From: Candidatus Bathyarchaeia archaeon
Lineage (GTDB): Archaea; Thermoproteota; Bathyarchaeia; Bathyarchaeales; Bathycorpusculaceae
NCBI GenBank assembly: GCA_038882955.1
Contig: JAVZNC010000004.1
Coordinates: forward strand, 126,349-190,348
Direction of reading: 5' to 3'
Length of the DNA: 64,000 bases
The notes under the pieces are model-generated. The model was not told where the DNA came from. It worked only from the letters and a program-made list of their open reading frames with translations, and did no database searches. The position numbers were made by a program, and so were the translations under genes. This document shows, in pieces, positions 30,762-48,113 of the stretch; the first letter of the stretch is position 1; the number at the start of each line of letters is the position of its first letter.

Positions 30762-30929
30762 ACTTTATCGTGAATAACAAGAAACCATACTTTGACTTAT
30801 AGGTTATGAATCCCCACACACTACAAAGCCTTATGATTAAAACTTTTAATTAAAACTTAACATCCCACAAGCAAAAATCTAGAGATGGTACTCAATTTAG
30901 CAGTTCAAACACAGTTAAAATTGACTGGG

Positions 30930-31844: not shown

Positions 31845-31882
31845 AGGTTAGAATAGGCGGCATCAGCCAAAAATAGGTTTTG

Positions 31883-33220
31883 TTAGATTTCGTATTCCCT
31901 TTCTTTTTCAGCCATTAGTACTTTGCCTTTCAAATCTCTTATGAAGTTGGCGAAGAGGTTTGGCTTTTCCGTGTGCACGGGAAAGACTTGTTTTGCGCCT
32001 ATTTCTTTTAGGATGTTCTTTAGTTGTATTGGCATTATGTGTCCAGAAACATGCGCGTGATACTGCGGCAAACCATAATGCTCAAGCCAGTTAACAAGCC
32101 TCTCATAGTCTATCTCCATCTCCTCGTTGAAAGGCTCAGAAGCGGAAAGCACATAACAGCTTCCAGCCTCTGGCTTAATCTCAACAAGCTCCTCCAAGTC
32201 GTAGAAGGATAAAGCCAAAACAATTTTGCACTGCTGCTTCGAAACTTCGGATGCACTCTTAACCTTGTCTGGATAACTTTCAATCAGCGCGTTTTCCCAC
32301 TTGTCTCGCACACGCTTCGATTTTCGAAAAACCAAAATGCCATCATCACTCAAACACGGAATCTCCAAATGCTTGTCCTCGCGCAACGCCTCCATCAAGT
32401 AGGCTTGTTTAAGTGAAACGGCGAGACAACGCCCATTATTCTTGGCGGCGCAGTAAAGCGAATTGAGCCTATCAACATCTGTAGAAGCAAAATCAACAAG
32501 CACGATGCCGCTTGCATGTCCGACAATCTCATTCAACTTGCCTTTAACCTCTGCTTCAGAAGAAACATGCGCCCCAGTCATGTTCGTGGCTTCAGTGATA
32601 ACCGCTTCGGGCTCTGCTTCAACAGCTTTTTCAACAAAGTCCCTTGTCATCTCGTGCTTGGCGCCATGCGTTCTGAAATCGCCAGTGTAGGCTATGCTGC
32701 CGCTGGAAGTGTGGATTATGAAGCCGTAAGCCCCTGGAACAGAGTGGTCAACGTGAACTGGCTCAACTTCTAGGTTATCCACTCGGATTTTCTTTCCAGT
32801 TCTAAAGGTTTGAAATTCTATGCCCTCAACGTTAAATTCCAAGTCTGCCCTACGTATTTCGCCCAGCGCTTGCAAAATGATTTTCATTGTTTCACCGCAG
32901 TAAACTGGAATTTCACGTTTTATAAATGACAAGTAAGCAGAATGGTCCATGTGCGCATGCGAAATGAAAACGGCGTCAATTGCACACGGTTCTTCATCAA
33001 ACTTGTATACGCCCTTTATTTTTGGTAATATACCAAGCTCCTGTAGACTTTTTTCGCTTCTAGGCGACAGGAAAGGCGGCGAATAAAACCGCCTTCTAGC
33101 GGCGTATGACAAGCCAAAATCGAAGAGCACTCTGATTTCTCTGTCTTGGATTAGGATTTTGTTTCCGCCGATTTCGTTTACTCCACCGTAAAAGGTTATT
33201 GTGGTTTTTGGCTTAACCAT
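31883..33220 (-). CDS. RNase J-like MBL/beta-CASP hydrolase
   Basis: GGVNEIGGN, SHAHMDH, VDHSVPGA, YTGDFR, HVSGH and PVHTE motifs. Confidence 0.88.
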   Translation of the reverse strand: MVKPKTTITFYGGVNEIGGNKILIQDREIRVLFDFGLSYAARRRFYSPPFLSPRSEKSLQELGILPKIKGVYKFDEEPCAIDAVFISHAHMDHSAYLSFIKREIPVYCGETMKIILQALGEIRRADLEFNVEGIEFQTFRTGKKIRVDNLEVEPVHVDHSVPGAYGFIIHTSSGSIAYTGDFRTHGAKHEMTRDFVEKAVEAEPEAVITEATNMTGAHVSSEAEVKGKLNEIVGHASGIVLVDFASTDVDRLNSLYCAAKNNGRCLAVSLKQAYLMEALREDKHLEIPCLSDDGILVFRKSKRVRDKWENALIESYPDKVKSASEVSKQQCKIVLALSFYDLEELVEIKPEAGSCYVLSASEPFNEEMEIDYERLVNWLEHYGLPQYHAHVSGHIMPIQLKNILKEIGAKQVFPVHTEKPNLFANFIRDLKGKVLMAEKEREYEI

Positions 33221-34922
33221 GCTGTTCCCTCATTTTATCCGCCCTTTTGCAAGCGTTTGATATTATGAGCATTATATGTGGAAGGGTGAAGACGCTGAAA
33301 ACTTTTGTGTATTTTGGATTTCCCGCCTTCTTGACCGTTTCTGGGCTTCCTCCAGCTTTCAAGTAGCCTTCGATAAAAGATTTGGCGATATGCTCCGCTA
33401 GACTACTTTTTGAGAAGGGCGAAAAATAATGTCCAGCATAGTAGAGGAACTCGGCTATGTCCCATGTCTTATCGCCCTTTCTTGATGCTTGTTCAAAATC
33501 TAATAGATAAATTTGGTTGTCCTTGCCTATTATGATGTTTTCTGGTTTTGTATCGCCCAAGGAGACATCAAGCGCGTGAACTTCAGCAAATTTTTCTCCC
33601 ACTTTCCGTATAATGTCAAGTTCATCTTTAACCTCGTCAGCAGCCCTTGCCTCGGCTATGCGCTTTATTTTTTTCTCAAGGCTCTCGCCTTCAACATATT
33701 CCATGAGAACAAGACGTTCGCCATGGTTTATGTGAAGCAGTTTTGGAACGGCAAACCCGCGTGAATGTAGAAACTGGTTTATTGCACATTCACGTTCAAG
33801 CCTTGAACGTCCCAAAACGGCGAAAGTTCTTGTTCCAACAGTCCACAATGTAAGCGGAAACCATTTAAAACTTGACCAGTCCTTAAACCTTTTTGCAACA
33901 ATCTTCTGTTCCATGCCGTTGGCTGAAGCCGTTATCAAATACGTCTCGTTTAAAACGCTTCCAATCTGCGTAACATTTATTTCAGCCTTTTCATCTGCCG
34001 ACAAAACTTTCCTGGCAAAAGCTTTCAAGTCAAGCCTATTAGCAAAAGAAACAAGACCATTAGCAGTTGGAACAAACAAATATGCTTGCGGGTCCTCAAC
34101 GAAACAAACATCTCGCGAGTAGCTTTCAGCAAACCTAAACCTTGTGAGTAAATCCCTATTCTGCATGAGAAAACTGAAAATTCTTGGAAAAGTTCCAATT
34201 AAAGAATTGAATAAAGCCTTCTGCGCAGTTCTGAAAAGGTTTACAAATCTGATTTTCCGATTCTTAACGCCATCAATGAATTTGGCGGAAATCTTAACAA
34301 AACCATTAGAAAAGCTGACTATACCCTCACTTTCAAGCTCCTTCAAGGCTTCCAGATAGCCGGGTAATACGCGGTTCACATTTATGCTTTTCCTATTTTC
34401 ATGCATGAATTCGATTAGGTCTGGCATCATAAGCGGAAAAAGCCTCGCCCTAGTTAACAAAGTTTCGTACATGAAGTATTCGGGCTTAATGCGGATGTCG
34501 TAGGATAGTTCTGGAAAGTCTAGGATGATGTTTTCTAGGATTTCGTGTATTAGGCGTTTCTTCAATTGTACCTCTTGAGCATGCAGATAATTCTCGCTGA
34601 CAATTGGGATATATGGAAAAATTAGTCCTCCAGCCAAAGCTTCGCCTAGAAATCCCCTGTCAACATCCCTCTCGAAAACCCACTGGTCAACGGCAAAAAT
34701 AATGAAACTTTTGCTTTCAAAAACATCTAGATAAGTCATTAATCGAGGCTTAAAATCTCTAATTATAAGCAAAGCTTGCGAGGCAGTTTTGGCTTTGAAG
34801 GTTAACTCTGAATCGCCGATTATGCATAACGCTGTAATGTCGCACGAGCCGGCAACATACCTACAAAACCTCATAAGACTTTCAGTTATTTCCTTGTCCA
34901 AGCGCCTCGTTTGCCTACTCAC
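33213..34922 (-). CDS. Atypical kinase (Bud32/Kdo/RIO-like C-domain) with large N-terminal domain
   Basis: IVAKRF, LMEYVEG, LGDTKPENI, LLDFEQA and WDIAEFLYY motifs. Confidence 0.75.
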   Translation of the reverse strand: MSRQTRRLDKEITESLMRFCRYVAGSCDITALCIIGDSELTFKAKTASQALLIIRDFKPRLMTYLDVFESKSFIIFAVDQWVFERDVDRGFLGEALAGGLIFPYIPIVSENYLHAQEVQLKKRLIHEILENIILDFPELSYDIRIKPEYFMYETLLTRARLFPLMMPDLIEFMHENRKSINVNRVLPGYLEALKELESEGIVSFSNGFVKISAKFIDGVKNRKIRFVNLFRTAQKALFNSLIGTFPRIFSFLMQNRDLLTRFRFAESYSRDVCFVEDPQAYLFVPTANGLVSFANRLDLKAFARKVLSADEKAEINVTQIGSVLNETYLITASANGMEQKIVAKRFKDWSSFKWFPLTLWTVGTRTFAVLGRSRLERECAINQFLHSRGFAVPKLLHINHGERLVLMEYVEGESLEKKIKRIAEARAADEVKDELDIIRKVGEKFAEVHALDVSLGDTKPENIIIGKDNQIYLLDFEQASRKGDKTWDIAEFLYYAGHYFSPFSKSSLAEHIAKSFIEGYLKAGGSPETVKKAGNPKYTKVFSVFTLPHIMLIISNACKRADKMREQHG

Positions 34923-34976
34923 ATTTTCACCTAGGCAAGAACCAAAATAGAATTTAATCCATTTTAGAGATATAAA

Positions 34977-36365
34977 CTAATGTCTCTCAAGAATTTTCCC
35001 ATACGCTCTCAAAACTTTCAGGGCTTTTGCAGCCTTCTCTGGCAAATTATAAAGTGGAATTTTCGTTTTGCCTAAAACCTTGTAAACTAGCGCGAAGTCT
35101 TCGCCTCCAGCTGGCACGTCCACAATGGGCTTTTTCGGGTATTTTGCCGCAACTTTTGGGATTACACGTGCATCTTCTGGTTCAAAGAAGCAGGATTTAA
35201 GCATGTTTATGATTAGAACGCCGTCAACATCATCGTCTGCAAGCACCAAATCCAAAACCTTCTCGTACCTTTCGGCTCTTGCATCGGCAATCATATCGAT
35301 GGGGTTTGTTGCGTCAACACCGGGATATAAGCGCTCAATTTCATTTCTGGTTTTGTTCGACAATGTCGCAAGTTTTAAGCCGTTTTTTGCTATCGCGTCT
35401 GCTGCAAGAATTGCTGGTCCGCCGACATTGCTTACTATTGCAACGTTGTCTCCGAGCATTGGCGGTTGCTTTGAAAGGGCGATTGCCGCGTCCATGAGTT
35501 CTTCCACGTTTTCTACCCTTATTATTTCAGCCTTTTTTAGTGCCGCGTTAAAAATTTCGTCTGAGCCAGCTATTGAGGCTGTGTGAGACTTTGCTCTATG
35601 CGCGGATTCTTCTGTTATTCCACCCTTTAAAACTAGGACTGGCTTTTTCTTGACGGTTCTTTTGGCTTCTTCTATGAAGGTTCTTCCGTCTTTTATTCCT
35701 TCCATGTATAGGCATATAACCTTTGTTTCTTTATCCTCGCTTAGATACCTAAGCAAGTCAACGTCGTCAACGTCTATCTTGTCTCCCATGAAGGCGAATT
35801 TGCTTACGCCAACATTGTAGAAACACGCCCAGTCCAGTAGGCAAGCGCCGACGCCACCGCTCTGCGAGATAACGGCGATGTTCCCCCTCTTTGGCATCAG
35901 ATTCCTTTCGAAGGTCGTGTTTAAACCGTTTGAAGTGTTTACCACGCCCATGATCGTGTTTGGACCCAAAATTCTTATGCCATAATCCTCCTTAAGCTTA
36001 AGCAGTTTTTGGCGTTGCGCATCCTTGTAGCCGCCAGTAATTATTACAAGGGCTTTTGCGCCTTTCTTTGCAATTTCTTCCGCTTGGATTAACGCGTGCT
36101 TAGGTGGAAGCATTATAACTGCGAGTTCTGGAACGCCTAGCAATGCTTTAGTGCTTGCAGATTTTTTCCTTCCATCAACATCCAGAACGTGAACTTTGCC
36201 TTTGAAGAACTTTTTCATGTTGTACGTTACACTTTTAAACAGTTGCGGGGAACTCATCCCAACCTTTTCGCGTAGCCTACTCGAACCTATTAGAACAACG
36301 CTTTTCGGCTCGAAGATAGCTTCCACTCCACTCATAATTTTACCTTCAAGTAGCACCTTCAACAT
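34977..36365 (-). CDS. acdA: ADP-forming acyl-CoA synthetase, alpha subunit
   Basis: GPNT.G, SQSGG, LYMEG, phospho-His motif SHTASIAG, NPID. Confidence 0.88.
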   Translation of the reverse strand: MLKVLLEGKIMSGVEAIFEPKSVVLIGSSRLREKVGMSSPQLFKSVTYNMKKFFKGKVHVLDVDGRKKSASTKALLGVPELAVIMLPPKHALIQAEEIAKKGAKALVIITGGYKDAQRQKLLKLKEDYGIRILGPNTIMGVVNTSNGLNTTFERNLMPKRGNIAVISQSGGVGACLLDWACFYNVGVSKFAFMGDKIDVDDVDLLRYLSEDKETKVICLYMEGIKDGRTFIEEAKRTVKKKPVLVLKGGITEESAHRAKSHTASIAGSDEIFNAALKKAEIIRVENVEELMDAAIALSKQPPMLGDNVAIVSNVGGPAILAADAIAKNGLKLATLSNKTRNEIERLYPGVDATNPIDMIADARAERYEKVLDLVLADDDVDGVLIINMLKSCFFEPEDARVIPKVAAKYPKKPIVDVPAGGEDFALVYKVLGKTKIPLYNLPEKAAKALKVLRAYGKILERH

Positions 36366-36414
36366 GACGGAAGGTAAGAAAATACGTTGTTCATATTCAT
36401 AAATTTAACCATAA

Positions 36415-37188
36415 CTACTTCTGGGTTACCTTCATATAAGCCAATGTGGCAAGCGAAGTGAAAATCAACGCAAACAAGGCTATGTCAACAAGCATAAATG
36501 GGTCAAAGGGTGGATTACCTAAAAGAAAAGCTCTTGAGAGGTCGGCGCCGCAGCTTAATGGATTATACTGCGCTATCAACGCCAACTGTGGAATTGCACT
36601 TTGTATAAGCGTCATTGGATAAAACACCGTGCTGCAAAAGAAAAGGACATAGTAGACAACTCCTCTCGCAGTTATGTATTTCTCAAAACTTGTCGTTGAC
36701 ACGGCAAGGGCTATGCTCAAACCAGAAGTGCCAATTGATATTAGGAAAAGAGCAAAGATTATTGTTAGAAACTGAAGCGCGTCTGGGAAAACTCCAGTGT
36801 AAACATAAGTTATGCCCAGTGTTGTGGCTAAAAGCGGAGCCATGTAAATTACTCCTCTAATGCCTCCAGCCAAAACCCTTCCAAGCGCCAGTTCTAAACG
36901 CTTTATTGGAAGGCTCAACATATAATGCGAGATTTCCCGTCGGATTTCCATGTTTATCTCGCGTCCAATCATGAACGCCGCGGCGAAAAGCGCTGTTATT
37001 GTTAAGCCTGGAGCGAAGAAGACGAAGTAGTCTGTTATTATGCTCCTATTAACCATGTTTGTGTATACGACTGCCATTATGAAGAGGTCTGCAAGGTTCA
37101 TGCTTATCATTCCAGCAATCCACCATTTATAGCGGAGGAAATAGCTGAGGTCCCTTTGAATGACGTGCAATATTGGTTTTATTGCCAT
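36415..37188 (-). CDS. ABC-2 type exporter permease
   Basis: 6 TM helices; LSLPI, STVFYP and NPLS motifs. Confidence 0.88.
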   Translation of the reverse strand: MAIKPILHVIQRDLSYFLRYKWWIAGMISMNLADLFIMAVVYTNMVNRSIITDYFVFFAPGLTITALFAAAFMIGREINMEIRREISHYMLSLPIKRLELALGRVLAGGIRGVIYMAPLLATTLGITYVYTGVFPDALQFLTIIFALFLISIGTSGLSIALAVSTTSFEKYITARGVVYYVLFFCSTVFYPMTLIQSAIPQLALIAQYNPLSCGADLSRAFLLGNPPFDPFMLVDIALFALIFTSLATLAYMKVTQK

Positions 37189-37964
37189 CCTCCGCCCTCC
37201 AGTCTGCGTTCATGCAGAAATATGCCTAGAAAAGTGAATATTGAAAAGAAGGCGACAATCCCAAAAGTTGCCAGCAAAGGCGAAGTGAGCGCTGCAGACT
37301 CTAATCCAGCACCCCACCTGAAGAGGTCAGCGGCAAAAGACAGCGGATTTATCGACGCGAGCCCACGGTAGTATTGAGGCATATATGCTACTGGATAGAG
37401 CGTAGTGCTCAACCGCACTATTAAGGCGTCAGTTACGCCCATCAAAATGTCAAATCTGTCTGATGACTTTATGGTTACAGCCAAAGTTATGCTGAAACCA
37501 GCTACGCCAAAAGTGAAAAGAAAAAGCGACAGCAAAGCTGTTAAAAGCTGTAGGACGCTTGAAACTCCGATTAGGTAGAGGACAAAGAGCATCATTGGAC
37601 CCACGTATAGAAAGCTTCTCAAGCCTCCGCCGATGGACCTTCCTAGGACAAGCTCCTTTCGTGAAACGGGAACGCTTAATAGGTACTCGATAACGCCGTG
37701 GTCAGCCTCTTCATATATGTCGTAGCCTATGAAAACTGCTGTTGAATATAGCATTGTTATTATTATTCCAGCAGCATAATAGTTGAAGTAGCTTCCCCCA
37801 ACCGCGCTTTGCACGTTAGGGTCGAACATCCTGTTGACAACCAAGCCGAATAGGGCTATTTGCGCCACAAACCATATTGCACGCATTATCAAAAGAAACT
37901 TGTAGCGCAGAAACATCTTTATGTCTCTTTCAGCAACAGTCCAAACCCTGCGTAGGCTTATCAT
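37179..37964 (-). CDS. ABC-2 type exporter permease
   Basis: EYLLSVPVSR, STTLYP and NPLS motifs. Confidence 0.88.
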   Translation of the reverse strand: MISLRRVWTVAERDIKMFLRYKFLLIMRAIWFVAQIALFGLVVNRMFDPNVQSAVGGSYFNYYAAGIIITMLYSTAVFIGYDIYEEADHGVIEYLLSVPVSRKELVLGRSIGGGLRSFLYVGPMMLFVLYLIGVSSVLQLLTALLSLFLFTFGVAGFSITLAVTIKSSDRFDILMGVTDALIVRLSTTLYPVAYMPQYYRGLASINPLSFAADLFRWGAGLESAALTSPLLATFGIVAFFSIFTFLGIFLHERRLEGGGWQ

Positions 37965-38920
37965 TTCCTCTGAGCCTCTTCAATTGTTAAGCCAGTATAA
38001 TGCGCAAACACATCATCAAGCGAAGGTTCACTCACGCGAATAGACTTTATCTGTACATGCACTTTCATAAAGAACTCCATTATTTTTGGTAGAACCTCCT
38101 CAGCATTGTTCAAGTAAATTTTTAGGTAATCCTCATTTATTGGCAAAACATTTACGACGCGCTGGATTCCCTTAAGCTTCTCAACTGTTTCGCTTGAAAC
38201 GGCTTTTTCCAAGGCTATTTCGACAACGTCTCCGCCTGGTATGCTGTCCTTCAGCTTTTTGGGCTCATCGCAGACAAGCAGTTTTCCTCTATGCATTATG
38301 GCGACTCTGTCGGAAAGCACATCAGCCTCGTAAAGTTCATTTGTGGCAAGCAGTATAGTGGAACCTTCATCTTTCAATTCGCGGATCATGTTCCAAATTC
38401 TGTGCTTTCCAACAATGTCTATTTGGGCTGTAGGCTCGTCCACTATGGCTATTTTTGGTCTTTGAATGAGAATTTTTGCTATCTCAATCCTTTTGCGCAT
38501 TCCGCCAGAAAAAGTATGAACGCTCTTAAATCGGTCGCTCCACAATTCCACTTGCTCTAAAACCCAGCGAACCTTTTTTTTACGTTCTTCCGCTGGCAAG
38601 CCGCAAACCTTTGCATGCCAATTCAAAATATCCCATGGCGCATCAACCCACAAAAGTTTAGGCTCCTGAAAAGCCATGCCAATCAGCGTCCTAGCCTTGT
38701 CTGGCTCACGCGTGACGTCATAAGGACCTACGAAAGCCGTTCCTTCAGTAGGCTTAATGACGGTTGTCAACATCAAAAGCGTCGTCGTTTTCCCAGCGCC
38801 GTTCGGACCCAAAATTCCGAGAATTTCTCCCTCTTCAACTTCGAGGTTTAGATGGTCAACTGCCGTGAAATCGCCAAACTTCTTTGTAAGATTGACCATC
38901 CGAATTATAGGTGCCATCAT
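37961..38920 (-). CDS. ABC exporter ATP-binding protein (DrrA-like)
   Basis: GPNGAGKTT, FSGGM, VDEPT, C-terminal PSLDDVF. Confidence 0.93.
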   Translation of the reverse strand: MMAPIIRMVNLTKKFGDFTAVDHLNLEVEEGEILGILGPNGAGKTTTLLMLTTVIKPTEGTAFVGPYDVTREPDKARTLIGMAFQEPKLLWVDAPWDILNWHAKVCGLPAEERKKKVRWVLEQVELWSDRFKSVHTFSGGMRKRIEIAKILIQRPKIAIVDEPTAQIDIVGKHRIWNMIRELKDEGSTILLATNELYEADVLSDRVAIMHRGKLLVCDEPKKLKDSIPGGDVVEIALEKAVSSETVEKLKGIQRVVNVLPINEDYLKIYLNNAEEVLPKIMEFFMKVHVQIKSIRVSEPSLDDVFAHYTGLTIEEAQRK

Positions 38921-38978
38921 TAGCCCAACGCTGAAGCAAATAGAAATAAAAAAACTACTAAATAAGATTAACTATTGT

Positions 38979-40256
38979 TCATGAAAGCAGATGAAAAGCC
39001 CTTTCTTCAGCTTTCCCCATCGCTTCTGCTTCATGAAATGTTTTTATTTGACGTTTCTCCATCAGCATTTTTCCATCAACAATTACCGTGTCCACGTCGC
39101 TTCCATGAGCGGAGTAGACAACGCTTGCGAATACGTCATGCAAAGGCTTCAAGTGCGGCTTGCTGAAGTCTATTAAAATTATGTCAGCTTGTTTTCCAAC
39201 TTCCAGCGAGCCAGCAACGCTTTCCAGTCCAAGGGCTTTTGCGCCGTTTATTGTTGCCATTTCTAAAACTTCGTAGGCTGAAAGAATAGTTGGGTCGCGG
39301 TAAGCGTGCTTCTGAAGTAGGGCAGCAAACTTCATGGTTTCAAACATATCTAACGTATTGTTGCTCGCTGGACCATCTGTCCCCAAGCATACATTGACAC
39401 CCAAACTTTTTAGGTCTTTCACTCTTGCTGCTCCTAAGCCGAGTTTCATGTTAGCCACTGGAACATGCACGACGTTAACTTCCCGCATAAAAAGCGTTTG
39501 CATATCTCTTTTTGACAAGTTTATGCAGTGCGATGCCAGCGTGTGCGCATCAAAAAAGCCTATTCTGTCAAGAAAGGCAACTTCCTTCAACATTGATTTT
39601 GACTCGGCTAAATGCGTGTGAACGCCAACTTTTAACTCAAGCGCTTTTTCGCGAACCTTCAAAAGCAAGTCTTCGCTGCAACTGTAGGCTGCATGTGGAC
39701 CGAGCATTGCTTTTATTCTGCCAGAAGCGTAGCCATCAAAATTTTTGGCGAAATCCACGCTTCGAGAAAAAGTTTCTGCGCCTAACTCGCGCCTTCCAGC
39801 CTCAATAATACCCTCTGCTAAAATACTTCTCAAACCACTTTCAGCCACAGCTCTTGCAACCATATCCTCATGGAAATACATGTCCGCAAAGCATGTTGTT
39901 CCACTTTTAATCATCTCCAAACAGCCCAAAAGCGCCCCAGCATAAACATCGTCAGACTTGAGCTTAGCCTCCAAAGGCCAAATAGTCTTTTTAAGCCACT
40001 TCTCCAGCGGCTGGTCTTCAGCTAAACCCCTAAAAAGCGTCATCGGCACATGCGTGTGGCAGTTAATTAGCCCTGGCAAGGCAACCTTTCCACGTCCATC
40101 TATCAGCGTTTCTGCTTTCATGCCGCTTGCGCGTGGGGCTCTTCCAACAAAAGTTATTTTCCCATCCTTCACGGCGAGTGCGCCATTTTCTATTATGCGT
40201 TTTTCGTCCATCGGCAGAATTGTGCATCCACGGATTAATATGTCAACCTTCTCCAA
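38979..40256 (-). CDS. Amidohydrolase (MTA/SAH deaminase-like)
   Basis: PGLINCHTH, GPHAAYSCS, HTHLAE and LGTDGPASNN motifs. Confidence 0.88.
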   Translation of the reverse strand: MEKVDILIRGCTILPMDEKRIIENGALAVKDGKITFVGRAPRASGMKAETLIDGRGKVALPGLINCHTHVPMTLFRGLAEDQPLEKWLKKTIWPLEAKLKSDDVYAGALLGCLEMIKSGTTCFADMYFHEDMVARAVAESGLRSILAEGIIEAGRRELGAETFSRSVDFAKNFDGYASGRIKAMLGPHAAYSCSEDLLLKVREKALELKVGVHTHLAESKSMLKEVAFLDRIGFFDAHTLASHCINLSKRDMQTLFMREVNVVHVPVANMKLGLGAARVKDLKSLGVNVCLGTDGPASNNTLDMFETMKFAALLQKHAYRDPTILSAYEVLEMATINGAKALGLESVAGSLEVGKQADIILIDFSKPHLKPLHDVFASVVYSAHGSDVDTVIVDGKMLMEKRQIKTFHEAEAMGKAEERAFHLLS

Positions 40257-40334: not shown

Positions 40335-40760
40335 TTAAATTATGGTTTTCGGCTCTTCAATTTTCTTCATTAGGGAAGGTCTTATGTGCGCTTGTGGTGG
40401 TTGCGAGATTTCCTCCTCAATTCCAGCTTTTGGCAGTCCATTTGTGCCTATTTTTCGGCATATGAAGTTGAGCGAGTCCTCTGCGAAGTTCAGCAGGTTT
40501 CGTCCCTCAACAGTCAGCTTGTAGATTTTTCTGGGTCTTTCGCTGTCCATGTTCCACTCGCTTTTCACGTAACCTTTTTTCTCCAAAGTGTTCAACAGCG
40601 GATAGATTGTGCTTGGCCCAAAGTATACGCCGAAGTTTTTGCGTATGCGCGTTATTATTTGGTAGCCATGCATTGGTTGGCTGCTTAGGAACTGTAGCAC
40701 TATTAGGTCTAGTAGGCCCTTCATTAATTTGACCTGAACTTCTTTTGAGCTGTTACCCAT
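40335..40760 (-). CDS. PadR family transcriptional regulator
   Basis: PMHGYQII...GPSTIYPLL..LEKKG...RKIYKLT. Confidence 0.92.
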   Translation of the reverse strand: MGNSSKEVQVKLMKGLLDLIVLQFLSSQPMHGYQIITRIRKNFGVYFGPSTIYPLLNTLEKKGYVKSEWNMDSERPRKIYKLTVEGRNLLNFAEDSLNFICRKIGTNGLPKAGIEEEISQPPQAHIRPSLMKKIEEPKTII

Positions 40761-40801
40761 TTCCCTTTTCCCTTCCTGTATTTTTGTTGTACACGGATAC
40801 A

Positions 40802-40823
40802 ATATGTCTATTTTTAGACATAT
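40802..40823. promoter_or_regulatory. Inverted repeat ATATGTCTA-TTTT-TAGACATAT, putative PadR operator
   Basis: Perfect 9-bp arms with ATGT/ACAT cores, between two divergent padR genes. Confidence 0.65.
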
Positions 40824-40945: not shown

Positions 40946-41308
40946 ATGAACAAGTCCAAAACAGAACAACAAACGGAAAGTGAAAAATTGACAGAAGACA
41001 TCAAAAAAGAAATTGTTCAACGCATAACCAGAAACTTACTAGACATACAAATACTGAGGCTACTAAGCGCCGAGCCAATGTGGGGATACAAAATAAAAAA
41101 GGAAGTAGAAACAAAATTCGGAGTAAAACTAAGACACGGAGCGCTCTACCCACTCCTAAACACAATGGAAAAGAAAGGCCTAATAAAAGGCAAAAAACAG
41201 CAGCAAGGAGGAAGAACAAGAAAAGTCTACACAATAGCAGAAAAAGGCAGCGAATACATAGAAACATACTACGACATATTAACAGAGCAAATACAGAGTA
41301 AAACATGA
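40946..41308 (+). CDS. PadR family transcriptional regulator
   Basis: PMWGYKI...HGALYPLL...RKVYTI. Confidence 0.9.
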   Translation: MNKSKTEQQTESEKLTEDIKKEIVQRITRNLLDIQILRLLSAEPMWGYKIKKEVETKFGVKLRHGALYPLLNTMEKKGLIKGKKQQQGGRTRKVYTIAEKGSEYIETYYDILTEQIQSKT

Positions 41309-41345
41309 GTCCAAGGCAATTCATTCTTCTAACTAAATCTTTTAA

Positions 41346-42350
41346 ATGTCTAAAAAGATAAAATGTAGTATGACTCCGAAAATAGGCAGATTCGTAGTAG
41401 CAAATCTTAAGAAAAGAAGCGAAAAAGGAATTAAACTTGCAAAACAAATACTAGAAACAGAGGAAATTAAATATCCTCCTTTGCGTGAAGCTATTAAATA
41501 CTACATTGAACATTGGAGAGACTTCACACATCCAGGTCTTTTTTCAATAGCATGTGAAGCAGTAGGGGGTAAAACTGATGATACACTATTGCCACAAGCA
41601 GCGATAACCATGATGGCAGCGGCATTTGACATACATGATGACATCATAGATGGGTCAAAAGTGAAACATAAAATTCCTACAGTCTACGGCAAATTTGGAG
41701 CTAAAATTGCCTTGCTCCTAGGTAACGCGTTTCTGATAGACGGTTTCAAAATTTTAGTTGATTCAACAGCATTATTGTCAGAAGAAAAAAGAAAAGAAAC
41801 GCTTGAAACAGTTAAGCGGTTAACGTTTGAAGTGGGCAATGCGCATGCCCTTGAAGTAGGCTTGAAAGAAAGGAAAGAACCTGTTCCGGAAAGTTACATG
41901 AAGGTCATCGAGATGAAAGCAGCAGGAATAGAGTTGGACATGCATTTAGGTGCATTGTTCGGTGGTGGAAAAGATAAAGAAATTGAATTATTATCCAGAT
42001 TAGGGAGAGTTCTTGGGATATTAGGCACTCTTCGAGAAGAATTTGTTGACATCTTTGAAATCGAAGAGCTCCGACACCGAGTGACTACACAAGACTTACC
42101 CGTACCCCTATTATTCGCAATGCAAGACCATGAAACAAAGAAAAAAGTCACTAAGATTATCCTAAAGTCAAAGATAAAAGAGAGCGATGTTACCAAACTA
42201 GTTAACGTCACCTTAAAGTCTAAACCTGTTGTTAGACTGAAAGAGAATATGCAACGCTTAATAAGTGAAGGAACCAAACTAGCAACATATTTTCAACAAG
42301 TAGAGAGTGACCTTCAACTTCTGCTGTCGTTTATGCTTGAAGACCTATAA
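41346..42350 (+). CDS. Divergent trans-isoprenyl diphosphate synthase (class I terpenoid fold) homologue
   Basis: First Asp-rich motif HDDIID, PTVYGKFG, LLGNAFL; second motif degenerate (REEFVD). Confidence 0.85.
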   Translation: MSKKIKCSMTPKIGRFVVANLKKRSEKGIKLAKQILETEEIKYPPLREAIKYYIEHWRDFTHPGLFSIACEAVGGKTDDTLLPQAAITMMAAAFDIHDDIIDGSKVKHKIPTVYGKFGAKIALLLGNAFLIDGFKILVDSTALLSEEKRKETLETVKRLTFEVGNAHALEVGLKERKEPVPESYMKVIEMKAAGIELDMHLGALFGGGKDKEIELLSRLGRVLGILGTLREEFVDIFEIEELRHRVTTQDLPVPLLFAMQDHETKKKVTKIILKSKIKESDVTKLVNVTLKSKPVVRLKENMQRLISEGTKLATYFQQVESDLQLLLSFMLEDL

Positions 42351-42352
42351 CT

Positions 42353-42415
42353 TTAGAGTGCCATTCGTATAGGCACTTCTTTCTTTTTCGCTCTTTTAAC
42401 TGCTACCTTCTTCAT
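42353..42415 (-). CDS. 20-aa basic peptide MKKVAVKRAKKKEVPIRMAL
   Basis: Manually translated; GAGGGG SD 6 nt before ATG; TATA-like TTTATTA ~42456-42462; stop abuts the stop of the prenyl-synthase gene. Confidence 0.55.
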   Translation of the reverse strand: MKKVAVKRAKKKEVPIRMAL

Positions 42416-42527
42416 CCAATTCCCCTCATGTAGTAGTATTGTAGAACATATCTACTAATAAAGTTTGTTGTTGAACACGAATACAGAATAATGATTAACA
42501 ACAGTTTTATCCTCAAAACAATACTTA

Positions 42528-43763
42528 TTGATGAGTTACTGTATGATTGCCTTGAAGGTGCTAAAAGAAAAAATCGTCTGGAGAGAAACTGCGCCATCGA
42601 TTCTTCTAGTGCTCAATAGTTTTGTGTGGTTTACATTAATTCATGCAGTTTTTGAGATGTTTTTAAATGAAATAAATTTGCTTGAGACGCAAAAGTTGAT
42701 CTTGTTCACTACATATTATGTAGGTATCGCAGTTTCGGCAATCTTTGGCTCGAAAATTTTCCCAATGGCGCGGCTAAAGTTTCTATATCTCTGGTTATTT
42801 ATAGGAACGATTACAACATCGTTTTTAGTTACAGTTCCCATAAATGACATGATGACTAATGTTCTATTCGCCTTTTTTTTGGGCATTTCAATTGGAATAG
42901 GAATGCCTTCTTGTTTAAGCTATTTTGCCGATTTAACGTGTGTTGAAAACCGCGGTTTTGTAGGCGGAATAATATGGAGCGGTGTTGGCTTTATCGTTTT
43001 GCTTTTAGCTCTTGTAGCTACTATGCTTAAACCATTGGAGACTGTTGCCATATTGACATTTTGGCGGCTTTTTGGTGGTTTAAGTTTTCTTTTACTCACT
43101 AAACAGCACAAAATGCTTAATAGCCGAAAATCTCCGAAGTATCTAGAACTTGTTTGTAAAAGAGACGTATTGCTTTACCTGTTTCCATGGATTATGTTTT
43201 CTATTATAAATTTTGCAGAATCGCCAATCTTGGAAAGAGTATTCGGTTCGGAATTTTTTGCCTTTATAGAGCTTGCGGTATACATATTCATCGGGATATT
43301 TGCGATTGTTGGTGGTTTTATTGCAGATATTGTTGGAAGAAAAAGAGTGGTTATCACTGGTTTTGTGATGCTCGGCATCGAATATGCCGCACTTAGTATT
43401 TTTTATGATTCACCAGCTACATCCTACTTATTTTTGGTTTTTGATGGTGTGACATGGGGGTTATTTGCTTCAGTTTTCTTTATGGCCGTTTGGGGAGATC
43501 TTGGTGAAGATTTTGAGAAAGAAAAGTATTACGCTTTAGGCGGTCTTCCTTTTCTTCTCGCAAGCTTCGTGTCAGTGCTAATCGAACCCTTTGTTAGTGA
43601 TATTTCTCCGACGGCAGCTTTTTCTTTTGCGAGCTTCTTTTTGTTTTTGGCTGTTGTTCCCTTGATGTACGCTCCTGAAACTTTGCCTGAGCGTAAAATT
43701 CGTGAGAGGGAGCTTAAGAATTATATCGAGAAAGCAAAGAAAATTAAGGAAAAGTATGTTTAA
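42528..43763 (+). CDS. MFS transporter
   Basis: About 12 TM helices; GGFIADIVGRKRV motif A; PETLP C-terminal motif. Confidence 0.85.
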   Translation: MMSYCMIALKVLKEKIVWRETAPSILLVLNSFVWFTLIHAVFEMFLNEINLLETQKLILFTTYYVGIAVSAIFGSKIFPMARLKFLYLWLFIGTITTSFLVTVPINDMMTNVLFAFFLGISIGIGMPSCLSYFADLTCVENRGFVGGIIWSGVGFIVLLLALVATMLKPLETVAILTFWRLFGGLSFLLLTKQHKMLNSRKSPKYLELVCKRDVLLYLFPWIMFSIINFAESPILERVFGSEFFAFIELAVYIFIGIFAIVGGFIADIVGRKRVVITGFVMLGIEYAALSIFYDSPATSYLFLVFDGVTWGLFASVFFMAVWGDLGEDFEKEKYYALGGLPFLLASFVSVLIEPFVSDISPTAAFSFASFFLFLAVVPLMYAPETLPERKIRERELKNYIEKAKKIKEKYV

Positions 43764-43771
43764 ATTGGGCG

Positions 43772-44902
43772 GTGGAATTCGTGTTTTTTCATTTGTTGTT
43801 GACAACTGATTGTAACCTTATGTGCCGTTATTGCTTTGGTGAAGCATCTGAAGACTTTGATGAAAGTTTTCCGGATTTTGATGTTGATTATGCTTTACCA
43901 AAAAGAATAGCATACAAAATTGAAGAGTTGGACAACTTTTGTAGGAAAGACGCGGATTGCGTTCTAACCTTTTATGGTGGTGAGCCGCTCTTGTGTGTTG
44001 ATGATGTTAGGCGTGTTATGGACAGCGTGCACGCCAAGCATTTTCTAATCCAGACTAATGGTTTGCTTTTGGACCGTTTGGAACCAGAATATGTTAATCG
44101 TTTGCACACTGTTCTTGTTTCTGTTGATGGCGATGAAGCGTTAACGGACTTTTATAGGGGGGCTGGCACTTTTAGGCGTGTTATCGAAAATCTGCGCCTT
44201 ATCAGGCGGAATGGTTTTGGCGGCGAGGTCATTGCGCGCATGACTGTTATGGAGCAAACAGACATTTACAAGCAGGTTAGGTGGCTTGTTGAGAACAGCG
44301 AGTTTCCATTTTCCTCTGTGCATTGGCAGTTGAATGCTGGCTTTTGGAATGATTTTGAGAGAAGGGATTTTAAGCGCTGGACTGAGCAGAGCTATAATCC
44401 TGGAATTCGTAGGCTTGCCCGTTTCTGGGTTGATTACATGGAACAGTTCGGCATTGTTTTGCGGCTTTACCCCTTCCTTGGAATTGCACATTCCATGCTA
44501 AATGGCGAAAAGCAAATTCTTCTACGCTGCGGCGGAGGATGGATAAACTACGCGATTCAAACAGACGGCTATATCGTTCCCTGCCCAACCATGTGGGGAA
44601 TGAAAGACTATTATCTTGGACACATAAGCAATGCAAACCCGTTAAACTTGCGTAAGATTTTCGTCGGCGAACCATGCACAAAATGCGAAATTTACGGCTT
44701 ATGCGGCGGAAGATGCCTTTACGCAAACATAACAAAACGTTGGAAAGGAGACGCCTACAAGGAAGTCTGCAAGACTGTACGAAACTTGATAGACGCAGTT
44801 TCGGCGGAAATTCCAAGAATAAAGGACCTAATAAAAAATGGGAGAATAAGGCTTGAAGACTTCGAATTCATGAAACACAATGGCTGCGAAATAATCCCAT
44901 AA
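43772..44902 (+). CDS. Radical SAM/SPASM protein (AF0577/TIGR04084-like)
   Basis: CNLMCRYC, FYGGEPL, QTNG, SVDG; SPASM cysteines CGGG...PCP...CxxCxxxxxCGGRC. Confidence 0.88.
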   Translation: MEFVFFHLLLTTDCNLMCRYCFGEASEDFDESFPDFDVDYALPKRIAYKIEELDNFCRKDADCVLTFYGGEPLLCVDDVRRVMDSVHAKHFLIQTNGLLLDRLEPEYVNRLHTVLVSVDGDEALTDFYRGAGTFRRVIENLRLIRRNGFGGEVIARMTVMEQTDIYKQVRWLVENSEFPFSSVHWQLNAGFWNDFERRDFKRWTEQSYNPGIRRLARFWVDYMEQFGIVLRLYPFLGIAHSMLNGEKQILLRCGGGWINYAIQTDGYIVPCPTMWGMKDYYLGHISNANPLNLRKIFVGEPCTKCEIYGLCGGRCLYANITKRWKGDAYKEVCKTVRNLIDAVSAEIPRIKDLIKNGRIRLEDFEFMKHNGCEIIP

Positions 44903-45156
44903 AACTTTACTGCAGCCACTATACAGCTGCCCCCTTTCTAAAGGCGCAATTAGGCAGAGTTGTCAGCGTTTATTTATGCTTTTGTGTTTCTGGTATAGAA
45001 GTTACTTCCAGAAAGTTAAATAATAGCGCGGTTGACTGTTGAGTCTTGGATTAGGCTTTAGCCATGCTAAAGCTGGTGGTTAGGCGCCTAAACCCGTGCT
45101 ATGCCTTATGCACGCTAAAAATATGGGTGAATAAAAAGGAAGGAGGGGAAAGGAAA

Positions 45157-46719
45157 ATGAAAAGAATATTCACGGTTCTATTAATGATGTCTATGATAAT
45201 AGCAATGGCGATGCCCGCGGTAGTTCATGCAAATGGACAGGCCGGAACAACCCTCGAGGCGCGTGTGACAGCAACAGCGCACTGGACGATTACGTATGGA
45301 TGGACAATTGACAAGTCTGTGAGTCCGGACAGTTGGACTTTTTATCCTGGCGAATCTGGTATTTCAACATACACTATTACTGTGGCAAAGGATAATGGCA
45401 CTGAAGAAGCATGGATCGAAGGTATAGTAACCGTGACTAACGGTGGAGAGCGAGCTACTGAGAACTTGACAATCTTAATTGAACTTAGAAACGGTGTGCC
45501 ACCACCAAAGGATTTAATCGCAACTGCCATTGTTGATGTGAGCGGCAATCCGGTCCTTGATCCAGGAGAGACAGGGGAATATCCTTACAGAATTGATATC
45601 CCGAGTGCGAATGTGCATGCTTGTGGAGAGTACAAGGTTACTGCATGTGTTACTATAACGAACCACTCAGGATATTTAGGTGAGCCTTTCGGTCCTAGCC
45701 CAAGCGCGACAACAAATCTGCCAAATAGCCCAACGTTAGTTAATGATGTGATTCATGTCGATGATACTAATGGTGGTTCATGGGAATTCAGTACCAGCAG
45801 TTCTGTAACTTATGACGTGCTTTTTGTGTATTGCCAAGAAGGGGAACATGTTAATAGGGCGACTATTCGTGAGACTGGGCAATATGATGAGGCAGTTGTG
45901 ACAATAACTTGTGTAATACCACCTCAAGCAATTATAAGCGGTGTCAAATTCTTCGATACCGATCTAGACGGACAACGAGACCCTGACGAGGTTGGCATAG
46001 AAGACTGGAAAATCGAGCTATACAAATGGAATGAAACCTCAGAGGCCTGGTATCTTTATGATACTACTTTTACGGATGGTATAGGCAACTATGTCTTCAC
46101 GGCTTCTGAAGTTGGACGCTACAAGATTGTTGAGGTCATGCCTTCTGGAATGTGGATTCAGACAGCTCCGGAAGACGGTTACTATGAATTCGATGTTGCC
46201 TTAGGCGAAACTTACACGGATAAAGACTTTGGAAACGTCTGCTTAAAACCTGGCTATGGAGGCAAAACGTTGGGTTTCTGGAGCAACAAAAATGGACAAG
46301 CCTTAATAAATTCTAGTGATGTAACAGCACTTAACGGACTGAACCTTTACAAGCCAAGCGGATGGTCATATCCGCCGTTTAGTAGCGATCTTGCAACAGC
46401 AAAAACGCAGATTAAAAACTATTTACTATCTGCAACTGCTGTGGATATGCGCTGGATGCTTTCCGCCCAACTGATCGCAACAAAACTGAACGTTCTTCAC
46501 GGCTTCTTAAGTAGCGGCACAACTGTTTACGTTGGTTCATCGTCATATGTTCCAACAGGATTCATAACAATAGGCGAAATCATAAATAACGCAAATACAG
46601 CACTGCACGGAAATGACAGAGCAGAGCAGGAGTATTGGAAGAACCTTCTCGACGGACTTAACAACAACATGCTACCATTTGTCTGCCCAGAACCCTGTTA
46701 TCCCGTAGTGTATCCATAA
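45157..46719 (+). CDS. Secreted surface protein with SdrD B-like/prealbumin-type domain
   Basis: Signal peptide after GGAGG SD; ISGVKFFDTDLDG...TDGIGNYVF...DFGN; GGKTLGFWSN. Confidence 0.8.
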   Translation: MKRIFTVLLMMSMIIAMAMPAVVHANGQAGTTLEARVTATAHWTITYGWTIDKSVSPDSWTFYPGESGISTYTITVAKDNGTEEAWIEGIVTVTNGGERATENLTILIELRNGVPPPKDLIATAIVDVSGNPVLDPGETGEYPYRIDIPSANVHACGEYKVTACVTITNHSGYLGEPFGPSPSATTNLPNSPTLVNDVIHVDDTNGGSWEFSTSSSVTYDVLFVYCQEGEHVNRATIRETGQYDEAVVTITCVIPPQAIISGVKFFDTDLDGQRDPDEVGIEDWKIELYKWNETSEAWYLYDTTFTDGIGNYVFTASEVGRYKIVEVMPSGMWIQTAPEDGYYEFDVALGETYTDKDFGNVCLKPGYGGKTLGFWSNKNGQALINSSDVTALNGLNLYKPSGWSYPPFSSDLATAKTQIKNYLLSATAVDMRWMLSAQLIATKLNVLHGFLSSGTTVYVGSSSYVPTGFITIGEIINNANTALHGNDRAEQEYWKNLLDGLNNNMLPFVCPEPCYPVVYP

Positions 46720-46886: not shown

Positions 46887-48113
46887 TTAGGATTCGCTTG
46901 TTTCTATTTGCGTATCGTTCTTGTCGTAGATCATGTATGTTGTAACATTTGCCTTGTCTATTCCATTCCAGTTGTAAGTGTTCCCTATGGAGACAAGTTT
47001 TTGTGTTGGCGCTGCAATGTTGTAGCCTTTGTATTGGATGTTCTGTTCGAAAAGTGCGCCTATAAGCGTTATTGTTTCTGCGCATGGGTTTAATTCGCTG
47101 TAAATGTTTGGGCTATTGTCCGTGTAGAACATTCCGCCTATTACGGTGAGTTTGGACATTGGGCGATTTCTTATAAGTATGTTTGGGACGTTGCCGCCGG
47201 GTCCATTTTCAACCCAGCAGTTTGTCATTTCAAGTGTTGGCATAAGCGGGTTTTCGCCTGTTCCGCCTTCAACTATTATGTGCGCTTCGAACTCGGCACT
47301 CCACATGTTCTTACTTGACAAGAGGCAATTCGACAGTTTAAGCTGGGCAATGTTCTTTGCGAATACGTCTGCCTTCCTATGAAAGCCCATCAAGCAGTGG
47401 ATTAAGTTTATTTGACCGCCGGTGCGGTAGCCATCACAGAACTCGCCTATTTTCACGCCAAAATCGGTAACCGTTAGCGGTGGCTCGCTTGTGTCCTTTC
47501 GCCCATCAATCCAACAGTTAAATATTAGGCTGTCTTCGCATCCAGTAAAATCAATGTTCGCCAGCGTCGCGCCCCAAATTTTGCAGTTGCGGATTTGGTG
47601 GACTGGCACTTGGCTTGGAGTGCGTGAGGCATTTATACACTTTTGGGCTAACCCGTTGCCGTTTATGAATAAACCGTCAAAGTGGGCGTATCTAACATTG
47701 CGGATATCAAAAACCGTGTTCATGGGTTGAACTGCAACAATTTCAGCGCCGTTTCCAATTATGTAGAAATCCTCTTTCAGTGGAACTATGGGCTCGCTGA
47801 TTTCAAATCTTTGTCTCTTCAAATAAAGGCACAAGTAGCCGTCATCCAGCGCGTCTTGAATGTTCTCGTAGCGTTCTCCATCGCCAACGACAACTTCAGC
47901 AGTAAAAGACTCATTCAGAGAGAATTCGCCATATTGCGCGTAGCCACTTTTTATCCAACTTTCATAATCATTAAAGAAAACAAATTCATTTACGTCATCG
48001 CTTTGATTTTCACTTTCGTTTAACGTGAATGGGAGACTGCCAACAACAAGTATAAACGAGAAGGCAAATATTGCAAACATTTTGACAAGGACAAGCGATG
48101 AACGCATTTTCAA
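46887..48113 (-). CDS. Secreted right-handed beta-helix (pectin-lyase-like) protein
   Basis: Signal/TM segment; NIQDALDDG cap, IIGNGA, repeating NC.I/NCW stacks. Confidence 0.65.
   Translation of the reverse strand: MKMRSSLVLVKMFAIFAFSFILVVGSLPFTLNESENQSDDVNEFVFFNDYESWIKSGYAQYGEFSLNESFTAEVVVGDGERYENIQDALDDGYLCLYLKRQRFEISEPIVPLKEDFYIIGNGAEIVAVQPMNTVFDIRNVRYAHFDGLFINGNGLAQKCINASRTPSQVPVHQIRNCKIWGATLANIDFTGCEDSLIFNCWIDGRKDTSEPPLTVTDFGVKIGEFCDGYRTGGQINLIHCLMGFHRKADVFAKNIAQLKLSNCLLSSKNMWSAEFEAHIIVEGGTGENPLMPTLEMTNCWVENGPGGNVPNILIRNRPMSKLTVIGGMFYTDNSPNIYSELNPCAETITLIGALFEQNIQYKGYNIAAPTQKLVSIGNTYNWNGIDKANVTTYMIYDKNDTQIETSES

Follow-up and report, generated by a model that had tools for sequence, protein, structure and literature searches.

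A conserved enzyme, micro-gene and transporter cassette in Bathyarchaeia, with a possible role in peptide prenylation

The window analysed here is a 64,000-nucleotide stretch of contig JAVZNC010000004.1 (GCA_038882955.1; positions 126,349 to 190,348), the contig C4 of a 1.54-Mb bin from a Candidatus Bathyarchaeia archaeon (completeness 95.6%, contamination 6.1%). It carries a gene for a homologue of the isoprenyl diphosphate synthases (IPPS), a micro-gene for a 20-residue cationic peptide and a gene for a transporter of the major facilitator superfamily (MFS), and these three genes form one conserved unit that is exchanged as a block between close relatives. The cassette points to a so far undescribed system of archaea in which a peptide is tagged with a lipid and exported. 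An earlier note on the window, drawn from its letters alone, had listed a PadR regulator, the IPPS homologue, the 20-residue open reading frame (ORF), the MFS gene and a radical SAM enzyme at this place, and all five are confirmed by the ORF list and by family scans.

Block replacement of the cassette

Relatives were collected with a pattern scan keyed on the enzyme's first Asp-rich motif (FARM) over 185,579 species genomes, which returned 225 relatives; the best 80 were fetched, of which 77 are labelled Bathyarchaeota, Bathyarchaeia, Bathyarchaeales or Bathyarchaeum. As 80 of the 87 unique loci come from this FARM-keyed scan, the counts given below cannot be taken as unbiased, and genomes that are related do not count as independent of one another. 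At all 80 fetched loci the IPPS gene is followed, on its own strand, by an MFS homologue, and in 20 extended related loci the MFS gene is found 3′ of the IPPS gene in every case, across a spacer of about 200 nt.

The enzyme and the transporter also vary together. Over the 57 loci that hold all three large genes (1596 pairs), the identity of the IPPS homologue correlates closely with that of the MFS protein (r = 0.89) and little with that of the adjacent radical SAM enzyme (r = 0.26; MFS versus radical SAM, 0.28). Pairs of loci with nearly identical radical SAM enzymes can hold widely different prenyl enzymes: 96% against 44% identity for L101/L109, 93% against 36% for L062/L091 and 90% against 31% for L076/L078. 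Together with the constant linkage and the joint replacement described next, this upholds the proposal of a conserved functional unit made up of enzyme, micro-gene and transporter.

The replacement is seen when the window is compared with two loci of the same genus (L043 and L044). An amidohydrolase gene, PadR1 and the greater part of PadR2 are 85-93% identical in DNA, the stretch between about 41250 and about 43750 only 40-55%, and the radical SAM gene again 86-90%. One breakpoint lies in the 3′ part of PadR2, where a sliding identity of about 0.9 gives way to one of about 0.5 over 41100-41250. Despite flanks that are about 90% identical, the enzyme and MFS proteins are only 35-42% identical between these same-genus genomes. 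Approximately unbiased (AU) tests on 32 loci, with four same-genus loci constrained as a clade, reject that clade for the enzyme (ΔlnL 264.7, p 2.7e-54) and for the MFS protein (ΔlnL 285.7, p 1.2e-51) and do not reject it for the radical SAM enzyme (p 0.58); the constrained group was taken from genus labels, though a quick enzyme tree had already been seen. Some records among metagenome contigs (X5 and X6) match the window in the PadR flank and become unlike it from 41112 and 41128, lending weak support to a block swap. Because the three genes are swapped as a block between conserved flanks, the cassette behaves like a locus that sets specificity in the manner of pheromones or bacteriocins; block replacement between close relatives is a hallmark of loci that specify signals, bacteriocins or recognition.

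The micro-gene

A minus-strand ORF of the same design as that of the window is present at 19 of 21 loci (the window included) when only ATG starts are listed, and the two remaining loci gained the ORF with a TTG start (L043) or with a corrected IPPS end (L050). The search for small ORFs at homologous loci, which the earlier note had named as its check, was extended to the 87 unique loci, where the pattern was recognized by eye in lists of top-scoring ORFs at nearly all of them; it was not found in those lists at L064 and L065. Counted over 84 loci, the ORF is lacking from 1 or 2, and the refuting condition that the note had set, an absence of small ORFs at homologous loci, does not hold. Under a strict rule (P-[IVM]-R preceded within 8 residues by 3 or more Lys/Arg and followed by no more than 10 residues), 62 of 84 loci have a qualifying ORF on the minus strand as against 1 of 84 on the plus strand, and 100 dinucleotide shuffles give a mean of 0.05 loci in 84 with a maximum of 1.

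The codons of the 70 ORFs that carry the motif show selection at the level of the amino acids, because the Pro and Arg codons are spread over their synonyms and third positions are the most variable. Proline is written as CCA 40 times, CCT 16, CCC 7 and CCG 7, and arginine as AGA 22, CGA 22, AGG 10, CGT 6, CGG 6 and CGC 4 (AGR 32, CGN 38); the identity of both residues is fixed by the selection rule, the spread of their codons is not. Mean column entropies at codon positions 1, 2 and 3 are 0.98, 0.83 and 1.62. A Shine-Dalgarno-like 4-mer occurs at -18 to -3 of 73 of 83 small ORFs, and TATA-like hexamers pile up at -50 to -41 from the start (73 hits in two bins). The stop of the small ORF lies at a median of 6 nt from that of the IPPS gene (range -26 to +64) and its start at a median of 139 nt from that of the MFS gene.

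In the window, the claim that the peptide gene has its own Shine-Dalgarno sequence and TATA element is borne out by a GAGGGG 6 nt 5′ of the ATG and by a TATA-like sequence further upstream (Table 1). Its stop codon does abut that of the IPPS gene, at 2 nt, as had been said; the strand is the minus strand, so that the micro-gene is convergent with the IPPS gene and divergent from the MFS gene. On this sequence evidence the micro-gene is a real coding gene. The contrary reading takes its Lys codons for the reverse complement of a T-rich IPPS terminator and what remains for MFS promoter DNA. It draws on the T/C-rich plus strand past the IPPS stop with its runs of T4-T5, which resemble archaeal terminators, and is barely credible against an open frame with a start codon, a Shine-Dalgarno-like site and a TATA element at fixed distance, a Pro-x-Arg motif kept across all synonymous codons including the AGR/CGN switch, and the strand bias of the strict motif.

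The isoprenyl-synthase-like enzyme

The AlphaFold2 model of the enzyme is of high confidence (predicted local distance difference test score, pLDDT, of 93.2), and its best solved match is the geranylgeranyl diphosphate synthase (GGPPS) 1wy0, with 173 bits by sequence profile and a Foldseek template modelling (TM) score of 0.80; the top solved structures overall are ordinary synthases from archaea and bacteria. The family shows wide diversity: when clustered at 50% identity, 108 clusters reach an E-value of 1e-30. Translation probably begins at M9 (41370) to judge from the sequence, in that the closest orthologues begin at an aligned Met and a conserved TTTTAAA lies about 25 nt upstream.

An alignment of 21 family members, picked regardless of motif, with the canonical GGPPS of the same genome (22 rows) separates what has been kept from what has been lost. 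The first aspartate-rich motif reads D(I/V)HDD(I/V)xD in the family and DIHDDIID in the window enzyme, and its three DDxxD aspartates are invariant in all 22 rows (21/21 in the family), in agreement with the claim that the first DDxxD is kept. The two basic elements reported as missing, GKRxR read as DFTHP and RRG read as VKH, are indeed replaced. Where the canonical enzyme has GGKRWRP, the window enzyme has W-R-D-F-T-H-P and the family W-x-D/N-x-x-H/R-P; where it has S-E-M-R-R-G, the window enzyme has S-K-V-K-H-K and the family S-x-x-K; and the late K-T is missing from the family, which has a conserved LPLP instead. In farnesyl diphosphate synthase (FPPS) and GGPPS structures, GKRxR, the RRG loop and the late Lys bind isopentenyl diphosphate (IPP). 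The replacement of the second DDxxD by EEFVD also stands, in that LREEFVD of the window enzyme aligns with QMQDDILD of the canonical GGPPS, whereas its description as degenerate does not: the change is conservative, because [E/D][E/D]xxD is kept in most family rows (SD, HE and DD are also seen) and the last Asp is invariant.

The enzyme falls outside the chain-elongating synthases (GGPPS/IdsA equivalogs) both by score and by its IPP-binding residues. Its best NCBIfam match, IdsA_Meth, reaches 96.2 bits against a cut-off of 468, and GGPP_syn 78.1 against 500. A separate, canonical GGPPS is encoded on contig C2 of the same genome (GKRWRP, DDIED and DDILD). By sequence, the enzyme is an offshoot of the archaeal GGPPS/IdsA group and probably not a relative of ComQ by descent, and its residues give the profile of a putative prenyl transferase that no longer uses IPP, with the donor site kept and the IPP-binding basic residues gone.

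Three long forms of the enzyme (P0123, P0147 and P0148) hold no informative extra domain. At some loci (L041 in genome G030, L070, L078, L082, L099, L108 and L119) the micro-gene is preceded by a tandem of IPPS-like genes or by two pairs of enzyme and MFS gene.

The encoded peptides

The 83 distinct peptides are 12-25 residues long (median 16), carry a net charge of +3 to +9 and follow one design, with a Met, a Lys/Arg-rich stretch, Pro-(Ile/Val/Met)-Arg and a short hydrophobic tail that usually contains Trp. At this length they are too short for a leader domain, and they lack the leader that marks precursors of peptides made on the ribosome and modified after translation (RiPPs). Trp is found within the last five residues of 46 of the 83 and is the last residue of 15; Gly-Trp occurs in 9; and Trp, Phe or Tyr stands in the last six residues of 70. 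The caveat that the peptide has no Trp, Cys or Tyr thus holds for the window allele and is softened for the family as a whole.

The peptide types follow the enzyme clades, which is expected of adjacent genes and does not by itself prove co-evolution. A relation between pocket residues of the enzyme and the Trp tail was considered and left unsupported by an underpowered comparison (only 6 independent pairs, sign tests p 0.5-1); the columns most associated with the Trp tail include the residue 4 before the first motif.

Comparison with characterized systems

A close parallel is with ComQ, which modifies the ComX peptide. ComQ keeps the first aspartate-rich motif without the second (PMC10853753); in ComQ and StheQ a pseudo second aspartate-rich motif (pseudo-SARM), NDxxx, is present and the first motif holds the donor, and a 10-mer peptide is accepted by StheQ (bioRxiv 10.64898/2026.08.29.745113). 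ComX168 is farnesylated at the third residue from its C terminus (PMC13731918), and the ComQXPA locus is highly polymorphic within species, defining pherotypes (PMC4408185). The Bathyarchaeia cassette resembles this system in the IPPS fold, the retained first Asp motif, the predicted absence of IPP elongation and an adjacent small gene, whose product has Trp near the C terminus in 46 of the 83 distinct peptides though not in the window allele, and also in its polymorphism, since enzyme, peptide and membrane protein are likewise swapped as a block. It differs in that the best models for the window enzyme are archaeal IdsA/GGPPS and its best structure is 1wy0; no ComQ-named model was present among 16 NCBIfam hits, and the best 60 PDB sequences listed include no ComQ-named chain. 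In place of the NDxxx of ComQ, most rows of the family have [E/D][E/D]xxD. ComX has 50-70 residues as against 12-25 here, where the peptide is encoded on the opposite strand, and the histidine kinase and ComA of ComQXPA are replaced by an MFS transporter and PadR in an archaeal host.

PalQ prenylates a C-terminal Trp (PMC10853753), and according to the available part of a 2026 review Trp is the target of every characterized trans-IDS-like peptide prenyltransferase (IDS, isoprenyl diphosphate synthase), and PalQ is helped by a preceding Gly (PMC13290415). Many of the micropeptides share with PalX of Paenibacillus alvei and StheX of Sphaerobacter thermophilus a Trp at or near the C terminus, and PalQ and StheQ accept short C-terminal peptides. 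These substrates differ by their long leaders (NHLP-type in PalX; StheX has 69 residues), membership by sequence is lacking, and the window allele has no Trp.

The synthases of the IdsA/GGPPS type (PDB 1wy0) have the same fold and the same first aspartate-rich motif and are the closest sequence relatives, from which the window enzyme differs by scores far below the family cut-offs, by the replaced IPP-binding basic residues and by its altered second motif. Ord1 (PDB 9v4g, 9v4h, 9v4i and 9v4j) is an IPPS-fold indole prenyltransferase that likewise holds its donor at the first motif, as far as described in the available text. It acts on a free small molecule, and its match to the window enzyme is much weaker than that of ordinary GGPPSs (about 104 bits by profile; rank 36 by fold, TM 0.67).

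A sister cassette was found at two loci (L144 and L145), where a gene for a protein of 73-74 residues is convergent with an IPPS-like gene; at L144 this small gene is also divergent from an MFS gene, and genes for PadR, winged helix-turn-helix and ParA-like proteins adjoin. The two small proteins are homologous, are not polybasic and have Trp near their ends (..QKWPPLS and ..LKWPILE); no Pfam or NCBIfam match was obtained for the 73-residue protein at E-values up to 1. Their enzymes are only 23-31% identical to those of the micro-ORF family, and the IPPS-like protein of L145 (G277:C115, 1501-2508) has lost the first aspartate-rich motif (NIYNNMMDN) with its 74-residue partner gene kept. A cassette class thus recurs in Bathyarchaeia, and the micro-ORF family is its second and far more compact form.

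Proposed function and alternatives

The reading that fits best, by analogy with ComQ, PalQ and StheQ, is peptide prenylation by the enzyme followed by export, a mechanism that we put forward tentatively and hold to be a little less than evenly probable. The enzyme, derived from an archaeal short-chain isoprenyl diphosphate synthase, has kept the allylic-diphosphate/Mg site and lost the basic residues that hold IPP, and it would prenylate the micropeptide tail with an allylic diphosphate as donor. The MFS protein may then export the resulting cationic lipopeptide, and PadR-type repressors may control the divergent micro-gene and MFS promoters through TGTWSWACA operators. Prenyl transfer, export, PadR binding and the biological role are all things that we infer. 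The earlier proposal of a modified-peptide system accordingly survives in its enzyme/peptide/MFS unit and in the loss of the IPP site, and finds no support in membership of the ComQ family or in a specific part for the radical SAM enzyme.

Several observations weigh against peptide prenylation. The window peptide itself has a basic N terminus, a P-I-R core and a three-residue tail, M-A-L, with no aromatic acceptor, and it is one of 13 among the 83 peptides with no aromatic residue in the last six. The micro-gene stands on the opposite strand and encodes no recognizable leader domain, and the cassette has no protease gene. The presence or absence of a Trp tail switches 8 or more times along the enzyme tree, and the tested pocket columns mostly do not change with it. 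The enzyme could act on a non-peptide acceptor. Its second motif has three acidic residues left where the pseudo-SARM reads NDxxx, so that canonical metal chemistry, or a reaction of another type, may apply. The bias of the FARM-keyed sample, described above, belongs with these points.

A small-molecule isoprenoid system is an alternative, though an unlikely one. The enzyme would here make or prenylate a non-peptide compound in the manner of a terpene synthase or of Ord1, the MFS protein would serve efflux under PadR control, and the micropeptide would be accessory or regulatory, for instance modulating the transporter or the repressor. PadR regulators beside an MFS pump are a common efflux layout, the acidic second motif is like that of enzymes ionizing a diphosphate with three metals, Ord1 shows, in the part of its description available, that the IPPS fold can prenylate a free indole substrate, and the 13 peptides devoid of an aromatic acceptor also fit this reading. 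It offers no reason, however, for the joint replacement and polymorphism of enzyme, micro-gene and transporter among close relatives; peptides of 12-25 residues are too short to span a membrane like known transporter-binding small proteins; and the Trp-rich tails match known substrates of trans-IDS-like peptide prenyltransferases.

The radical SAM enzyme, whose gene starts 8 nt past the MFS stop, raises a further alternative. Beyond its match to TIGR04084 it reaches 38.3 bits with TIGR04085 (cut-off 27) and falls just under the cut-off of Pfam SPASM (19.7 against 21.5), with an N-terminal CNLMCRYC and a SPASM cluster CTKCEIYGLCGGRC as its Cys motifs. Lipid-modifying radical SAM identities (Gms, Tes and GrsA/B) were considered and rejected for their other domain layouts, as given in the available parts of their descriptions: Gms has an extra N-terminal domain and its homologues were filtered at >420 residues, and GrsA/B are B12-binding radical SAM enzymes probably devoid of auxiliary clusters. 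A literature search on TIGR04084/AF0577 retrieved nothing relevant on function.

Under this alternative, the micropeptide would chiefly be the substrate of TIGR04084, which would recognize an x-P-x-R core and build a radical SAM RiPP, with the IPPS-like enzyme and the MFS protein as a second step and export. Of the 75 unique loci whose downstream DNA is long enough, 57 do have an intact radical SAM gene directly 3′ of the MFS gene, in both upstream contexts, the PadR pair and a leucyl-tRNA synthetase gene; six more loci (L064, L066, L068, L070, L105 and L125) have split, partial or more distant matches, and no match was found downstream at 12 of the 75. The next-best models, both below cut-off, are the peptide maturase PapB (99.9 bits) and the anaerobic sulfatase maturase TIGR03942 (61 bits). 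Sulfatase maturases act on C/S-x-P-x-R, which resembles the peptide core.

Against this, the residue at the sulfatase Cys/Ser position is variable in the micropeptides, and TIGR04084 is found in 65 of 151 sampled Thermoproteota genomes and in a Sulfolobus acidocaldarius control, usually as a single copy. Among 41 relatives, it occurs in 5 with no cassette-level enzyme match (G027, G029, G033, G034 and G037), and it was not found in 3 cassette-bearing genomes that are 91-99% complete (G023, G030 and G032). It is unlinked from the cassette in four genomes (G040, G026, G025 and G031) and lies on another contig in a fifth (G020), no constant neighbour being found beside the unlinked genes, and a whole enzyme clade keeps K-P-M/I-R with no adjacent radical SAM gene. 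The identity of the radical SAM enzyme does not track the cassette, as noted above. A radical SAM RiPP is therefore quite improbable. The wide spread of the enzyme, its occurrence apart from the cassette, that of the cassette apart from it and the lack of co-variation lead us to treat it as a conserved flank, probably a bystander separable from the trio, and its substrate is probably general and not cassette-specific. The caution in the earlier note that the radical SAM enzyme may be an unrelated neighbour was well placed, and its inclusion as a specific part of the system falls away.

Two single observations concern these unlinked or displaced genes. In G020 (L141, C19), an MFS-like fragment with 32% identity lies beside the radical SAM gene at 5230-5553 and a full cassette starts another contig. 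In G031 (L140, C2), a gene for an Rce1-like CAAX/CPBP intramembrane protease (3291-3959) adjoins the unlinked TIGR04084 gene, a single case and possibly a coincidence.

Last, the IPPS homologue might serve the canonical GGPPS as a regulatory or chain-length-setting subunit, as small subunits do in heptaprenyl or geranyl diphosphate synthases, and have unrelated neighbours; the lost IPP-binding residues would suit such a non-elongating subunit, and the nearest named Atlas clusters (PF00348 clusters excluded) are heptaprenyl diphosphate synthase component 1 (0.79-0.81), a weak lead, yet the invariant donor-site Asp and the acidic second motif, which known non-catalytic small subunits lack, together with the fixed linkage, the co-variation with micro-gene and MFS and the block replacement, which it leaves unexplained, make it very improbable.

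Putative regulation and locus organization

The pattern TGTWSWACA is concentrated between the micro-gene and the MFS gene, at 7.7 per kb of spacer (107 hits at 74 of 84 loci) as against 0.06 per kb of coding DNA, with peaks at -35 to -26 (52 hits) and -65 to -56 (32 hits) from the start of the small ORF. It is also present within 260 nt upstream of PadR2 at 11 of 35 loci, and the whole window has 6 matches against 2.2 expected, including those at 42440, 42469 and 40785. In its extended form, the last of these (TGTTGTACA) resembles the second operator-like motif of the spacer (Table 1). We infer that the PadR proteins bind these putative operators. The PadR pair lies upstream at 35 of 84 loci; its two genes are divergent, PadR1 is 57-91% identical across related loci, and PadR1 is also part of the locus. 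A role of PadR2 as a co-varying sensor was rejected, the identity of its C-terminal part correlating with that of the enzyme at r = 0.24 and that of its winged helix at r = 0.35. At four loci with no PadR pair (L053, L058, L087 and L127) the divergent upstream gene encodes leucyl-tRNA synthetase, and L053 also has a 91-residue winged-helix protein upstream.

Table 1. Features of the cassette and its immediate surroundings in the window.
Feature	Position	Strand	Remarks
PadR1, PadR-family regulator	40335..40802	-	155-residue ORF from TTG; later ATG near 40760 possible; PF03551 68 bits (cut-off 27)
Operator-like motif TGTTGTACA	40785..40793	.	pattern TGTWSWACA; upstream of the later PadR1 ATG
PadR2, PadR-family regulator, 120 residues	40946..41308	+	PF03551 69.3 bits (cut-off 27)
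IPPS-fold enzyme, 326 residues from M9	41370..42350 (ORF open from 41346)	+	PF00348 76.1 bits (cut-off 27)
Micro-gene, 20-residue cationic peptide MKKVAVKRAKKKEVPIRMAL	42353..42415	-	ORF listing and homologous ORFs at related loci
Shine-Dalgarno-like GAGGGG	42422..42427	-	6 nt upstream of the micro-gene ATG
Divergent control region, small ORF/MFS spacer	42440..42477	.	operator-like TGTAGAACA 42440-42448; TATA-like 42455-42463; operator-like TGTTGAACA 42469-42477
MFS transporter, 410 residues from ATG 42531 (alternative start 42528)	42531..43763	+	PF07690 53.6 bits (cut-off 33.4)
Radical SAM/SPASM enzyme, TIGR04084	43772..44902	+	TIGR04084 315.8 bits (cut-off 225); PF04055 49.2 bits

A hydropathy scan of the MFS protein gives many hydrophobic segments and its C-terminal tail is basic. 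Upstream of the locus (36415-40256) lie a three-gene DrrA/DrrB-like ABC-2 exporter and a TRZ/ATZ-type amidohydrolase, whose NCBIfam matches, all under cut-off, include 5′-deoxyadenosine deaminase; the ATPase gene and the amidohydrolase recur 5′ of the PadR pair in related genomes. Downstream of the radical SAM gene are a 551-residue protein with one SdrD_B-like domain (45064-46719), unmatched in 20 related loci, and a 408-residue protein with no family match (46887-48113) that is 81% identical in L044. An Rfam scan of the window gave no match.

A second neighbourhood of the same composition, with ABC exporter, amidohydrolase, both PadR genes, enzyme, micro-gene, MFS and radical SAM genes, is found on contig C9 of the same bin (L038; G000:C9:6407-24500). 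It is colinear with 30516-38894 of the window at 69-76% DNA identity. In view of that identity and of the 6.1% contamination of the bin it was set aside as a same-genome paralogue and is probably a co-binned relative.

Implications

Most members of the abundant Bathyarchaeia are uncultured, and how they interact is poorly known. The cassette is carried by many of them and is widespread, as the 108 clusters indicate, and gene callers overlook its conserved gene of 12-25 codons. No published archaeal case of peptide prenylation by an IPPS-fold enzyme was found, and the literature examined, seen in part, describes such lipidated ribosomal peptides only in bacteria. A search returned no paper linking Bathyarchaeia with ComQ; one on archaeal RiPPs and prenyltransferases returned only the review cited above (PMC13290415), whose available text mentions archaea only for lipoproteins; and the word 'archaea' is absent from a 2014 census of ComQXPA.

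Because the predicted substrates are synthesizable 12- to 25-mers, the prenylation hypothesis is directly testable in vitro, and the cassette offers new, possibly thermostable, candidate enzymes for the lipidation of peptides. A more speculative extension, which we consider unlikely, is that the cassette serves pherotype-like communication or kin discrimination, in which a lineage-specific prenylated cationic micropeptide would be sensed via the conserved PadR repressors. If that were true, Archaea would gain their first ribosomal lipopeptide signal and their first peptide prenyltransferase of the trans-IDS-like kind.

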